This document shows positions 36,001-42,000 of a stretch of DNA of 64,000 bases, piece after piece. Origin of the DNA: Roseibacillus sp. (lineage in GTDB: Bacteria; Verrucomicrobiota; Verrucomicrobiia; Verrucomicrobiales; Akkermansiaceae); contig JBPOGI010000007.1 of the NCBI GenBank assembly GCA_051251855.1, positions 96,001-160,000 on the forward strand. The letters run 5' to 3'. Positions within the stretch are counted from its first letter, which is position 1. The number at the start of each line of letters is the position of its first letter. The position numbers were made by a program.

Positions 36001-39000
36001 AGCAAGCTTTTCGAAGCCCTTCGCGGCTTTTTTACTCATCGCAATATGACCCGAAAGCTCTACCTCACCTGGCCCGTCGGTAATAACACATCTTCCACTG
36101 AGCCTCGCTACCGAGATTGTTGCTCCAGTCTCACTGCGTCTATATGTCAGGAACAAGGGCTTCGAAAACGAAGGAAATACAGCAGCCCTGAAGGTCACTT
36201 CACCTTTCGCTACTTGAGTTGATTGAAAGGACGGCAAATTTGCCGCTCTATAGTATGGGCCGTAGTATTTCTCTCGCCCTTTCGGAAAATAAGGCCTCCC
36301 CTTTGGGTCAGTAACACTTTCAGCCAATAAGTCCTCATCTCCCTTTTTGGTAGGATTTTCCGCAGAGGGTTTAACACGCTGCGGTTCTCCAGAGACAACT
36401 TGCACAACCACCAAAATCGCAAAAAAGGTGAGGAATTTCATGATATTCTGGCGAACGAGCCGCTAACTTCCTAACAGCCAAATATCGACGACTCAAGTCG
36501 TCACTCCAGCTAGTCACCTATCCTTCTTCCGTCGATTCACCTGCGGTCGGAATTCTATCGACTTCCTCGAGCAAGTTCACGATATCCACTCCCCGCTCCG
36601 CCGAGACATCATGCCGGAAACTCAAAACAGGTGTGCAACGCAATCTCACACGGTTCGAAACTCTCTTCTGAATCATACCGTGCTTACGCCCCAAAAGCTC
36701 AAGCACAGGCTCAGATTCGCCGCCTAGAATGCCGACCCAGACTTTCGCTTCGCGCAAATCCTTGGTAACTTCAACCGCATTGACCGAAACCAACTGTCCC
36801 TTCCATTCAAAATCCTTCTGAATGATTGCTGATATCTCCCGCTTAAGGAGTTCATCGACACGTTGGAGACGCTGGGACATAAAAGTAAGTTAAACTCGAA
36901 TCAGAAAAGACGCAACCGAACCTATAGTTCGACCGGAATACTCTCTAGGGTGTAACACTGGATAATATCGCCTTCTTCGTAGTCGTTGAAGTTGCCCAAA
37001 CGAATACCACACTCGATACCCTGCTTGACCTCGCTCACCTCATCTTGGAAGCGACGCAAAGTCGACATCTTGCCATCGAAGACAGGAGTTCTGCCACGAA
37101 GGACACGTGCATGCGCATTGCGGGACACCTTGCCCTTTGCTATGACACAACCAGCGGCTTTGCCTTTCTTCACCTTGAAGACCTGCTTCACCTCGGCATG
37201 ACCAAGAATGTTTTCCCGCTTCTCTGGAACCAACAATCCAAGCATCGCATCGCGCACCTGATCGAGGAGTTCGTAAATCACAGAGAAGAGCTTAATTTGC
37301 ACTCCCTCAGACTTGGCTGCTTTCACAGCCTTTCCCTCCACCTTAGTATTGAAACCAAGAACCACCGCATCGGAAGAACTGGCGAGAAGAATATCGGATT
37401 CACTGATGGCTCCGGTAGCGGCATGAAGAAACTTCACGTCCACCTTTTCGGATTCAATGTCGCCGACTGCTTGCTGGATCGCTTGTACCGAACCCTGCAC
37501 ATCAGCGCGTAGAATGAGATTGAGCGTAGTCTTCTGACCCGTCTCAACGAAAGAAAGCATGTCTTCCATGCGGCTCTTCTTAGGACGAACGAGGCGAGCC
37601 TCGCGGCGCTCATGTTGACGCTCTTCGCCCAACTTCTTAGCTGCGCGTTCGGTCTCCATGATGACGAGTTCATCACCTACATGAGGTGAGTCGGAGAAAC
37701 CAAGAACCTCGATCGGGTAACCCGGAGGTACTTCCTTAACCTGTTCGCCACGGTCATTGATGAGACCTTTGATTTTTCCTGAGAAAGGACCGCAAATGAA
37801 CGGCTTGCCGACTTTGAGTGTTCCATTCTCGACAATGACGCTAGCTGTCGCCCCCTTACCCGCTTGGATACGAGACTCGATGACAATCGCGCGGCCATTT
37901 GCCTTCGGATTGGCCTTCAGCTCCAAGACCTCCGCCTGCAAGGCCATGAGTTCAAGCAATTCATCCATGCCATCACCAGTAACAGCGGATACCTCAAGAC
38001 ACTCAATATCACCACCAAAGTCAGTCGGGGTGAGTTCGTGCTCCATCAGTTGCGTCTTCACCCGAGTCGGGTCTGCAGCGGGAAGGTCGCACTTATTGAT
38101 CGCGACGATGATCGTCTTATTAGCAGCCTTGGCGTGGCTAATCGCCTCCTTGGTCTGAGGCATGATGCCGTCATCAGCCGCAATCACGAGAACGATAATG
38201 TCGGTGACATCTGCTCCCCGCGCTCGCATCGCCGAGAAGACAGCGTGGCCAGGGGTATCGATGAAGGTTACCGGACGGTCACCGTGGTCCACTTGGTAAG
38301 CGCCCACATGCTGAGTGATTCCACCCGCTTCGCCGGAAGTTACTTTCGACTTACGAAGATAATCTAAGAGAGAAGTCTTACCATGATCGACATGACCCAT
38401 GAAGGTGATAATGGGAGCACGAAGAACCATCTTGTCCTCCGGCTCTTCAATCTCAGGCTCGGGCTCCTCAATAACTTCCTCAACCTTATGAACTCCCCCG
38501 CCTTTTTCGCGCTTCTCGCGCTCGAAGACAAAGCCATGAACCTCACAAACTTTTTCCGCAATCTCAGGCTCAATCGCCTGCTTGGGACTCACAAAAATTT
38601 CCAGAGCAATGAGATCTTTCATGATCTCAAAGCCTTTCAGACCCATACGCGCAGCGAGGTCTTCCACAATAATGGGCGGCTTAAGGCTAATAGTCTTGCC
38701 GTCATCACCTTCTTCACTGGCAGTGTCGTCGCCTTCGCCATCAGCTGGAGGTGCTACTGAACTAGCCTCATCGAGAGAGACCAACTCACCATCTTCTTCC
38801 TTGATTTTAGAAATGGGGGCCAAGACATCCTTTCCTGATCTCTTGGTCTTTTTAATGGCAGACTTGGGAGCCGCATCGTCTTCAATTCCCAGATCGAGAG
38901 CCGCTTTCTTTTGTTTCGCGACCGTTGGTTCAGAGGCCTCGACAGCCGCCTGCTTGTCACGCTGCTTCTCGCGGCGTGACTTCTTAGGTGCTTGATCCTC

Positions 39001-42000
39001 GTCTAAGAGGCTCAGCACTTTTTTCTTCTTCTCGTCCTTCGATTTTCCGTCTTCTGCCATGCAATCGTTCCTTCGTTTTCACCGGTCGTCCCCAGATTTA
39101 TGTTTACTGTGATTCTTCTGCGGCCTCTTCGGGCGCAGCTTCTTCACTCGCATCTGAGGGAGCATCTTCTGCGGGGGATTCTTCCTCCACGTCAGCTCCG
39201 GTTACGGCGGCGGGCGCATCATCAGACGCGGCTCCTCCCCCGATTTTTTCCTGGGCTTTGCCCAAAATTTCTTCTGCTAAAGCGCGATCGCCTTCGAGCG
39301 CTACTTCGAGATACTCAATCGGCATCTGGGTGACCAAATCAGCGGTCGCTCCCCCTGCGCGGAACAATTTATCCGCAATCAAGGGCTCGATTCCGAGCTC
39401 GTCAGCCAAAGTCATCGCCGCGCCTGCAACACGTGCTTCGAACTGCTCGTGCTGAGTCTCGTCCTTGCGCACCTGCACATCCCAACCCACCAACTTGGAG
39501 GTAAGACGCGCGTTTTGACCACGACGGCCAATCGCTTTGCTTAAATCTTCTTCATCCACGGTGACGTGGATCACTTTGTCTTCCTCATTTGCCTTGAAAG
39601 TCCGAATGATCGCTGGCTTCAAAGCATCAGTGACAAAGTCCTGCAAATCTTCGCTCCAGCGGATGATATCCACCTTCTCATTGTTAAGCTCGCGAACGAT
39701 GTTCTTAACACGCGCACCACGAAGACCAACACAAGCACCTACCGGATCGACTTTGTCGTCATTGGTGCCTACCGCGACCTTAGTGCGATAGCCCGCTTCT
39801 CGCGCAATCGCTTTCAGCTCTACCGTGCGGTCAGAAATTTCAGCAACCTCGGCTTCGAACAAGCGACGCACAAAGGCAGGATGGCTGCGAGAAAGAATAA
39901 TCTCAGGGCCGCGAGCATCATTATCAACCGCAACGACATAGCAGCGAATGCGGTCACCCACGTTGTAATCTTCTGTCGAAACACGCTCACGGGAAGGCAT
40001 GCGAGCCTCGAACTTGCCGAGGTCGATCATAACGTCGTTCTTCTCGAAGCGACGCACTGAACCGCTGACGATATCGCCCGCTCGGTCCTTGAACTCATCA
40101 TACATCATCTCCTTCTCGGCGAGACGAAGACGCTGCATCATAGTCTGCTTAGCAGTCTGCACCGCAATACGACCAAAATTCTTGGGAGTGACATTGAACT
40201 CCATCCGATCACCCACCGCAGCATCAGCCTTTCGCTTTTGCGCTAAAGAAACAGGGACCTCGTTGAACTTATCCTGATGGTCGTCATCAGACACAACCTC
40301 AAGGTCAGCGAAAATTTTAGTTTCACCCTTCTTGGTATCAATTTCGGCCCGTAGAATCTCAATCGCATCGGCGCCAGGCACCATGCGACGATAAGCTGAG
40401 GTAAAAGCGTACTCCAAAGCTTCGACCACTCGCTCGCGAGTGATAGCTTTTTCCCGTTCGTAAAAATCGATGAGGGCAACGATGTCGTTGGTCATAAGGT
40501 CTCGAGGTTAACCTCTTGAGACAGAAAAGAGTGGGCCTTTAAACCCACCCTTGGCCATTTCAAGAGATGTCTTCGGGCGAAGTCTTAGGGGCCATTCCCC
40601 TGCAAAGCAAGTGCGAAATCCCTGCTCGCTTCCGCTATTTCCTTCCGACAGGGTCAAATCATGAAGGCAATCTCCCTCGACGCCGCCGGAACTCTCTTCG
40701 ACCTCTCCGAACCGGTGGGAGAAGTCTACACCCGTTTCGCCCACCAGGAAGGGTTCGCACTCTTACCAGCAGAGGTCGAAAAGAGATTCCGAGCCGCCTT
40801 TAAAGCCTCTCCAGCTCCTTCTTACGATGGAGACTCAGACGGTCACACTGCCGAACGCTCGTGGTGGAGAGCCTTAGTACTCCAAGCCACCGAAATCCCT
40901 CCATCAGAGGCGTTCGAACGCCTTTTCCACCAACTCTTCGCCCACTACGAAAAACCCTCCGCTTGGCAACTCTACCCCGACACCCTTCCCTTCCTTGAAA
41001 AGGCTTCTGCAAAATACCGCCTCGCTGTTGTCTCGAACTTTGACGACCGCCTCCATCCCATTCTCGACGGTCTCGGCCTCTCCCCCTTCTTCGAAATCGC
41101 CATCTCGTCCTCCCTAGCCCAGTCTCAAAAACCCGATTCCAGAATTTTCGAAAGATTACTAAAAGAACTGGCCCTTCCCCCTGAAGAAGTCCTCCACATT
41201 GGCGACTCGCTCAAAGCTGACTACGAAGGAGCCCTCCAAGTAGGAATGAAGGCCTTTCACCTGCAGCGTGCGAAGGGCCAGCTGCTTGCCCATGCAGCAC
41301 CAACCCTCTCCTAAGTTTGCAAAGAAAAAGGAGACTCAACTCATCATCTTCAAGAGTATAGGGAGCAAGAGCGCGAGCGCGATGGCGATGACCGAGCCCA
41401 GCAAAGCCTTCCCTGCATCCAAGAAAATCAACTTCGACACTTCTTTTCGGTTTCTTTGGCCTAAGCGCAAGGCGAGACCAATCTCCCGGCCAGCCAAAAG
41501 CCCCAAAAAGACCCAAGTTGTGCTCATTGGCAACTTTTCTGGCCACATTTTGAGAACATCAAGTTTGAAAAAGAGAAGCACAACCGCGTAAAGTAAGTCC
41601 ACAAAAGTGGCCGATCGAACATCCATCGTACTGGTCTTGGAGGTGACCACCTTTTGAATCTTCCCGCCTCGCTCGCGGAAAATCCATCCTTGTAACAAGA
41701 CCATCCCACCCAAGGAAAGAGCAAGGCCCCACCAAGTAAGTTCCCGCGGAAGATAACAAAAGATATTGGCGAGGTCCTGCACCAGCCACATCGACCAAAG
41801 GAACCCAGTAGTCCCCCACTGAAAGATGACCCAACCGAAATGCGGGTTATTTCGCTTTTCTTCAGGCTCAGCCGCAAAACGCTTCTCCACAGTCCCAACA
41901 ACAGCGCTAAAAATGAGAAGACCAAGAACAAATGCGATGGCGTAGCCAGAAAGCGACTTCTCCATCATCCCTTGGAAAAGATCGATCGCCCCTTTGGCGT

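Follow-up and report, generated by a model that had tools for sequence, protein, structure and literature searches.

Our data support the conclusion, drawn earlier in a genome-wide survey's note, that the ribosomes of Roseibacillus sp., a marine bacterium, mature without recognizable forms of RimM, RimP or Era; the operon slots of rimP and rimM stand vacant. We consider it very probable that, within our samples, the three factors are truly absent rather than hidden. The survey's note had presented this as a trait of Verrucomicrobiota; absence from that phylum stood, but the framing proved too narrow for a pattern that is PVC-wide. Within the genomes sampled, we show that all four PVC-related phyla lack RimM, that Verrucomicrobiota, Chlamydiota and most Planctomycetota also lack RimP, and that Era is gone from several lineages. 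Accounts of RimM and RimP stress their high conservation among bacteria, and the lack of the three factors has so far been reported mainly for tiny parasites or symbionts. Free-living, culturable bacteria that lack all three factors are, in effect, natural viable ‘triple knockouts’.

The vacant rimP and rimM slots

The window, a 64,000-nt stretch of contig JBPOGI010000007.1, contains the nusA–infB–rbfA operon of Roseibacillus sp. and its boundary:

36518..36880, minus strand: rbfA, 30S ribosome-binding factor A, 120 aa (Pfam RBFA, E 3.5e-22), a retained late-30S factor
36922..39060, minus strand: infB, initiation factor IF-2, 712 aa (Pfam IF-2, GTP_EFTU, IF2_N)
39104..40495, minus strand: nusA, 463 aa, which opens the operon here (Pfam NusA_N, S1, KH_5)
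40496..40524, minus strand: 29-nt spacer, the empty rimP slot (from the sequence and the E. coli rimP–nusA layout)
40525..40552, minus strand: terminator hairpin with an 11-bp stem, resembling the rimP-leader, directly before nusA
40661..41314, plus strand: divergent gene for a HAD-family hydrolase, bounding the operon (Pfam Hydrolase, E 1.4e-22)

In E. coli, rimP spans ~450 nt and is the first gene, ahead of nusA. Here nusA, infB and rbfA are co-oriented as in the canonical operon and rimP is not the first gene; the window annotation and the 29 nt between hairpin and nusA bear out the survey's description of an operon without rimP. The closest named relatives of nusA belong to Roseibacillus spp. 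(85–97% identity, best segment), and relatives carry unrelated genes at the position that the HAD hydrolase occupies upstream of nusA. Because the genome (4.96 Mb, 13 contigs) is 95% complete and its 16S gene is not in the assembly, the claim of absence depends on relatives, of which several are single-contig; such genomes also lack all three factors, as the survey had claimed for large genomes.

The hairpin has a G-rich 5′ arm, a C-rich 3′ arm and a short U run. It shares this architecture with the rimP-leader, described as a short G-rich/C-rich hairpin with a U run 4–130 nt upstream of the nusA–infB operon's first gene (Naville and Gautheret 2010, PMC2965389), and lies within the same distance range, but the Roseibacillus copy precedes nusA and rimP is gone. 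A GGG...CCC stem with a U run, a pattern drawn up after the sequences had been seen, occurs in 82 of 87 regions upstream of nusA, 18–104 nt from the gene; 77 of the 87 regions come from close kin, and the distant genomes have it in 7 of 10. The motif has nine matches across the Roseibacillus genome. The hairpin had no match in Rfam, its stem shows two-sided change in 1 of 10 pairs (18 sequences), and the leader was not found upstream of any of the 15 rimP genes examined. The leader thus appears to track the operon rather than rimP, which would favor NusA, already proposed as its regulator (PMC2965389), over RimP in that role.

In the rpsP–(khpA)–rimM–trmD–rplS operon, rimM is expected directly before trmD. 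It is not found there in the Roseibacillus genome, where rpsP, trmD and rplS are dispersed on contig C1 and rimM adjoins none of them, just as the survey had noted. Among the best-scoring 30 of 80 trmD loci, rpsP or khpA ends within ~160 nt of trmD in 26, and 20 of the 22 Verrucomicrobiota loci in this group leave no room for rimM. A second set has 64 of 69 non-Firmicute loci linked, with gaps of up to 201 nt, too small to house rimM. In all 11 Firmicute loci a gene of RimM size fills the slot before trmD; since these RimMs were seeds of our RimM profile, they show that the slot is filled there, not how far the profile reaches. The empty rimP and rimM slots are positional evidence for loss, but an empty slot is by itself no proof of absence, because stand-alone RimPs can score low and era has no fixed neighbor genes.

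Distribution of RimM, RimP, Era and RsmG

Family profile searches found RimM over the cut-off in none of 201 Verrucomicrobiota genomes (each at least 90% complete), 101 Planctomycetota, 61 Omnitrophota or 5 Chlamydiota, the last result being based on five genomes and four loci. Bacterial controls for the family searches were positive in 10 of 10 cases, and trmD and uS19 were each detected in 80 of 80 hand-picked genomes. Our own profiles were run unfiltered over 48,169 six-frame ORFs of the Roseibacillus genome, and the RimM profile gave no match at E < 5. Weak RimM matches in this genome were noise, as was a candidate in genome G178 (E 0.008, under the cut-off, with two stops). Outgroup searches with E. 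coli RimM and uS19 returned close Proteobacteria alone; six RimM matches became profile seeds.

RimP was found in 1 of the 201 Verrucomicrobiota genomes (G135), on a 1.95-kb contaminant contig where a second nusA lies together with an LpxD of Bacteroidota type. A PVC-tuned RimP profile run on all 201 genomes returned this contaminant and four weak partial matches, which proved to lie in the wrong reading frames of purC, of a LacI regulator gene and of genes for ribosomal proteins, and none of 1093 ORFs upstream of nusA loci matched the RimP profile. In the Roseibacillus genome, the PVC-tuned profile reached at best E 0.11, and a 150-sequence profile at best E 0.004, with a secreted-type 535-aa protein that matched only in two short C-terminal stretches; the reversed-sequence null gave E 1.4. 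RimP is kept in 14 of 101 Planctomycetota, and some members of this phylum and of Omnitrophota still carry it as a stand-alone gene, the planctomycete copies scoring as weakly as E 7e-4.

Era was present in 69 of the 201 genomes, all outside Verrucomicrobiia. The Era family is marked by a GTPase domain to which a KH-II domain is fused at the C terminus, and no Roseibacillus protein has this arrangement; GTPase matches in the genome were Der, MnmE, FeoB, HflX and others, and the best match to an Era-KH profile had E 3.3, versus 1e-41 for E. coli Era. On a tree of 13 ribosomal proteins, three Era-less families (f16, f23 and f33) group together in a single clade (0.999), with genomes that have Era as its sister, and f16 has its named relatives among Victivallales. 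A second loss of Era probably took place in Victivallales. The gene tree of Era, whose resolution is poor, leaves the Kiritimatiellia and Lentisphaeria proteins unjoined, which makes a single early loss with re-gain possible. Era is described as absent in Chlamydia and patchy in Planctomycetota (Gruffaz and Smirnov 2023, PMC10582724); here it was found in 0 of 31 and 3 of 46, respectively. The survey's claims thus held for RimM, RimP and Era in the Roseibacillus genome, for RimM and (the contaminant aside) RimP across the phylum, and for Era across the class.

Highly divergent RimM, RimP or Era could escape our profiles, or assembly gaps could conceal the genes. The weak stand-alone RimPs of Planctomycetota, the loose first filter of the genome search and the incompleteness of the Roseibacillus genome all point this way. 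We nevertheless regard such concealment as very unlikely: unfiltered profile scores are at the level of noise, other translation genes score normally, single-contig genomes lack the three as well, and the same Era search reaches E 1e-45 to 1e-69 in sister classes.

Loss of RsmG is local, patchy and separate from the losses of RimM, RimP and Era. RsmG was not found in the Roseibacillus genome, as the survey had reported, or in any of 17 genomes of its own family, and it occurs in 98 of the 201 genomes overall. The survey's count of 3 of 46 class genomes did not stand; an even draw gave 25 of ~67, a class count that assumes families f1–f15 to form one class, with f12 and f13 placed by table order.

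Similar losses are known from CPR/Patescibacteria, in which rimM and rimP are nearly absent (RimM, 94.9% in non-CPR versus 0.4% in CPR) and era and rsmG poorly conserved (Amikura 2025, PMC12641178). The same combination of rimM and rimP loss with frequent era and rsmG loss recurs here. CPR, however, have genomes of 0.5–1.5 Mb and shortened rRNA and have also lost rbfA, der and obgE, whereas genomes in our samples reach 5–10 Mb and keep RbfA, RsgA, RsmA, Der and LepA; the 4.96-Mb Roseibacillus genome encodes RbfA, Der and an Obg-type GTPase. The main text of that study does not mention Verrucomicrobia-type names, Planctomycetes-type names or PVC, and its dataset includes 45 and 40 such genomes. 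Gruffaz and Smirnov (PMC10582724), whose text does not mention Verrucomicrobia-type names either, hold that Era dependence has been overcome solely by the extremely genome-reduced Dependentiae, Chlamydia and CPR. The lack of Era in our Verrucomicrobiia sample and in Victivallales contradicts limiting its loss to genome-reduced groups. The losses in CPR and Chlamydia are already published; a full-text literature search, with subscription and COG-database papers largely outside it and figures excluded, returned no statement of RimM or RimP absence in PVC or of Era absence in Verrucomicrobiia. The four genes all belong to the GTDB bac120 marker set; these markers are therefore always missed in PVC genomes, and the pattern is implicit in public tables, though perhaps undiscussed.

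Shine–Dalgarno use and Era

Era binds the sequence known as anti-Shine–Dalgarno, or anti-SD (PMC9032327), and the survey had argued that the lack of SD enrichment in the Roseibacillus genome fits loss of Era. The observation was confirmed: SD motifs precede 118 of 1265 starts and occur in 132 of 1265 control windows, and SD use at ribosomal-protein genes is low across Verrucomicrobiia (70 of 235). The interpretation fared worse. That cells abandoned SD pairing and then lost Era is highly improbable, and as a general cause of Era loss SD disuse is largely refuted. Counted at ribosomal-protein genes only, with a lenient threshold and 6–7 genes per Victivallales genome, SD motifs are found at 42 of 46 genes in Era-less Victivallales versus 229 of 268 in Era-bearing relatives, and at 65 of 89 in Era-less Planctomycetota, 48 of 67 in Chlamydiota and 45 of 53 in further Era-bearing relatives; the shuffled background in SD-rich genomes is 0.4–0.8. 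Moreover, all 14 genomes read, Era-bearing or not, have the Era-binding 3′ end of 16S in intact form, and the Bacteroides control has Era. Bacteroidia mostly do not use SD. A 16S-trailer hairpin able to mask the anti-SD was found both with and without Era.

Possible routes to a finished 30S subunit

Compared with the E. coli 30S pathway (PMC9032327), Roseibacillus is without Era, RimM, RimP and RsmG but shares RbfA, RsgA, RsmA and YbeY, whose presence the survey had correctly reported, as well as LepA and RNase III, and the 16S 3′ end is canonical. We lean slightly towards an explanation that joins true loss, an order of losses and a simple RbfA-based route. First, rimM would have been deleted from ffh–rpsP–khpA–rimM–trmD–rplS near the root of PVC and Omnitrophota. 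Second, rimP would have departed from the nusA operon, with the leader staying behind. Finally, era would have been lost at least twice in Verrucomicrobiota, in Verrucomicrobiia and in Victivallales.

As to mechanism, the three factors may be dispensable accelerators that speed assembly and reduce misfolding without being obligatory, and the PVC 30S subunit would be completed by a simpler route through RbfA, RsgA, RsmA and YbeY; we judge this proposal as apt to be right as wrong. Slow growth could lower the cost of the losses. RbfA would be the likeliest cover for the missing factors, because extra rbfA suppresses an E. coli rimM deletion, the functions of Era and RbfA overlap (PMC9032327) and RimP's N-terminal domain is RbfA-like in fold. 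Counting against such cover, no known factor, RbfA included, suppresses a rimP deletion (PMC9032327). RbfA is also single-copy (one Pfam match over the cut-off) and of ordinary size in Roseibacillus, a further point against it; a second tblastn candidate, on contig C8, was weak and lay inside a long unrelated gene.

A PVC-specific protein could instead replace one of the factors, a reading that we find possible but unlikely. The best lead is the highly conserved 51-aa small basic protein TIGR04137, whose gene lies just before a pseudouridine-synthase-like gene in Roseibacillus and immediately follows trmD in G063 and era in G070. These are three neighborhoods only, located with a motif; TIGR04137 co-occurs with Era in G070, and its model is a single helix (pLDDT 69) with no sequence or fold match in the PDB. 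TIGR04137 was reportedly found by Lagkouvardos in 2014 in PVC only, alongside loss of uL30. As a second lead, KhpA/KhpB (KH-II RNA binders) could fill the KH role of Era, and KhpA and a KH+R3H protein are present in Roseibacillus, but khpA also occurs in a Poribacteria control locus and KhpA/B are common in bacteria that retain all three factors. In a more specific and improbable version, a TIGR04137-like clade protein would have taken over from RimM on the branch of uL30 loss, cheapening the later losses of RimP and Era and giving PVC a distinct 30S route; an orphan protein would then gain a function, and an alternative bacterial assembly pathway would be defined. E. coli queries for Hfq and uL30 gave no match in the Roseibacillus genome.

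Alternatively, built-in suppressor changes in the ribosome (uS19, uS13, h31/h33b, h44) could make the factors unnecessary, which we think quite unlikely. Such suppressors are known in E. coli, uL30 had no match across 45 operon stretches, and at 13 16S positions, several in h44, the 14 PVC sequences all agree with one another and depart from E. coli; as E. coli is the sole RimM-bearing 16S reference, these differences may be E. coli peculiarities. Moreover, the 16S head, uS19 and uS13 appear conventional, alignments of the two proteins reveal no striking shared change, and an extra 16S base after 983 is confined to two planctomycetes. One alignment with E. coli 16S shows no large deletions, except for a shorter h44 in one planctomycete.

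The essentiality supplement for Verrucomicrobium spinosum is uninformative on era, rimM and rimP, since its E. coli orthologue table omits rbfA, rsgA, ybeY and lepA as well as these three. Targeted deletion is now feasible in this species (PMC12283558), and its genetics offers a direct approach to the minimal 30S assembly kit and to whatever covers for the missing factors.

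Absence of the factors in the genome, the phylum and beyond

The source genome, whose 13 contigs total 4.96 Mb at 95% completeness with the 16S gene not assembled, gave no match to curated models of RimM, RimP, Era or RsmG. Because the curated-model search pre-filters, every one of the 48,169 six-frame ORFs was also scored, with no pre-filter, against profiles of our own. The RimM profile returned no match at E<5. A first RimP profile was built on 14 sequences drawn from planctomycetes, Omnitrophota and Poribacteria, and its best E was 0.11. A second, built on 150 diverse sequences, reached 0.004 on two short C-terminal stretches of a secreted-type 535-aa protein. 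The Era KH-domain profile, which scores E. coli Era at 1e-41, gave a best E of 3.3. RbfA, RsgA, RsmA, YbeY, LepA, Der, RNase III, KhpA and a KH+R3H protein were all found. The genome-wide survey's note had reported both the four absences and the retention of RbfA, RsgA, RsmA and YbeY; both stand, with no convincing match from our RimM, RimP or Era-KH profiles, and we consider true absence of RimM, RimP and Era highly probable.

Among 201 Verrucomicrobiota genomes at least 90% complete, from 104 genera, RimM was above cut-off in none and RimP was found in one, on a contaminant contig, which upholds the proposed phylum-wide absence of both. Era was present in 69 of the 201 but in none of the ~67 members of the window's class, Verrucomicrobiia, as had been claimed; it was also missing from three families outside that class (0/32, 0/17 and 0/3). 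RsmG occurs in 98 genomes, 25 of them class members, superseding an earlier figure of 3 of 46 from a narrower sample. All ten bacterial controls were positive in every factor search, and trmD and uS19 were each recovered from 80/80 chosen genomes. We rejected the sole RimP match (L001, G135:C48) because its 1.95-kb contig bears an additional nusA together with an LpxD of Bacteroidota type; the host genome belongs to Akkermansiaceae and is rated 1% contaminated. Four extra matches to a PVC-tuned RimP profile were weak, in wrong frames, and likewise rejected.

Other phyla were sampled around named 16S loci. Planctomycetota had RimM in 0/101, RimP in 14/101 and Era in 3/46 genomes; Chlamydiota had RimP in 0/51 (one genome partly scored), Era in 0/31 and RimM in 0/5; and Omnitrophota had RimM in 0/61, with RimP and Era both present in the single genome tested. 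The missing factors are therefore a trait of the PVC grouping (Planctomycetota, Verrucomicrobiota, Chlamydiota), deepest for RimM. Earlier papers describe the loss of these assembly factors in CPR (PMC12641178) and, for Era, in Chlamydia and part of the Planctomycetota (PMC10582724); the latter, a 2023 review, confines complete Era loss to extremely reduced genomes, and Verrucomicrobia go unmentioned in its text. Full-text searches, which did not reach figures, subscription papers or COG tables, found no statement of a PVC-wide pattern. All four genes are bac120 markers, so the presence/absence data are already public. The PVC loss is thus genuine and under-reported, a variation on a phenomenon already known, and any mechanism for it is a proposal.

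Vacant rimP and rimM slots

The minus strand of the window carries nusA, infB and rbfA, with a HAD hydrolase divergent upstream; the closest named relatives of this NusA are Roseibacillus species. The operon contains no rimP, as previously noted. A hairpin precedes nusA:

40552-40525, minus strand: leader hairpin with a short U run, 29 nt before nusA

It agrees with the rimP-leader as described in a published account (PMC2965389). Of the 87 regions upstream of nusA that could be scored, 77 come from close kin; four further regions were too short. The motif, composed after the sequences had been inspected, is present in 82 of the 87, against nine matches across the whole genome. It was found in 7/10 distant genomes and 3/5 further loci, and E. 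coli matched a looser form only. Rfam gave no match for the hairpin, and its covariation is slight. Because the hairpin remains before nusA, the 5' end of the operon looks intact, with the rimP slot vacant. None of 12 fetched planctomycete rimP loci adjoins nusA; since rimP can relocate, the empty slot supports the profile searches and is no substitute for them.

Several of these stand-alone planctomycete RimPs (L149-L160) have basic C-terminal tails, and the rimP-leader is missing there. The window's hairpin can lengthen (40511-40568, minus strand) into a stem that buries the U run and might weaken termination; relatives have other flanking pairings. Directly downstream of rbfA lies a secreted-looking 267-aa ORF without a Pfam family (35638-36441, minus strand). 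Farther along, a secreted-looking 970-aa protein (32606-35518, plus strand) ends in two CxxCH motifs and presumably resembles di-heme oxidoredictase-family proteins.

The rimM slot lies between rpsP(-khpA) and trmD. Among the 30 best-scoring of 80 trmD loci, rpsP or khpA ends within ~160 nt of trmD in 26, three are unlinked, and one, from Poribacteria, has another gene in the slot. Of a further 69 loci from outside the Firmicutes, most of them named Victivallales or Kiritimatiellales, 64 are linked, with gaps of up to 201 nt, four are unlinked and one is too short. In Firmicute loci, a RimM-sized gene occupies the slot in 11/11. The Poribacteria gene (L189, between khpA and trmD) encodes a coiled-coil-like protein of 140 aa, which may resemble YlqD. 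Lentisphaeria KhpA proteins (L172-L177, L188) have N-terminal extensions of 30-60 aa.

Era loss and Shine-Dalgarno use

In a 13-protein tree, the three Era-less families outside Verrucomicrobiia (f16, f23 and f33) form one clade beside Era-bearing genomes and apart from that class; the named relatives of one family (f16) are Victivallales. The simplest reading is that Era was lost twice within Verrucomicrobiota. The alternative is a single loss followed by re-gain, for which the poorly supported Era gene tree leaves room.

The note had tied Era loss to missing Shine-Dalgarno (SD) use. Lack of enrichment in the source genome was borne out (118/1265 versus 132/1265 in the control), but it does not explain the loss of Era: Era-less Victivallales have SD motifs at 42/46 ribosomal-protein genes, and the Era-binding 16S 3' end is intact in 14/14. 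In these operon counts, with start sites placed by homology, SD motifs precede 70/235 genes in Verrucomicrobiia, 229/268 in Era-bearing relatives, 65/89 and 45/53 in Planctomycetota without and with Era, 48/67 in Chlamydiota and 30/30 in E. coli. Only in one class do the two losses, of SD use and of Era, go together. Most 16S 3' trailers (L202-L224) contain the anti-SD followed by a complementary stretch, making a hairpin possible with or without Era.

Assembly without RimM, RimP and Era

In E. coli, according to two papers (PMC9032327, PMC3575805), cells survive deletion of rimM or of rimP, the loss of rimM is compensated by additional rbfA, and Era and RbfA overlap, but nothing rescued the loss of rimP. 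The 2023 review (PMC10582724) describes several species that can do without Era, though the cost is high. We propose that RimM, RimP and Era may be dispensable accelerators of assembly and that an RbfA-centred route could complete the 30S subunit. Given true absence, we put the chances of this proposal at roughly even. No compensating change was found in uS19, uS13 or helices 30-34, which look ordinary against E. coli as the sole RimM-bearing reference. The leading rival is that a clade-specific protein took over, the candidate being the TIGR04137 small basic protein, whose gene has these neighbours in three genomes:

G000:C1:1619890-1620045 (source genome): TIGR04137 gene, adjoins a pseudouridine-synthase-like gene
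L195:2329-2484 (extracted locus): TIGR04137 gene, adjoins trmD
L015:1203-1358 (extracted locus): TIGR04137 gene, adjoins era

The protein is, however, modelled as one helix and has no match in the PDB.

An E. coli uL30 query had no match in the source genome or in 45 S10-spc operon stretches (L229-L273), some of which exclude the uL30 slot, the operon apparently being split early in Lentisphaeria. The uS5 of the source genome (L273), like that of several Verrucomicrobiia, has a long N-terminal extension that is acidic and Gly/Arg-rich.
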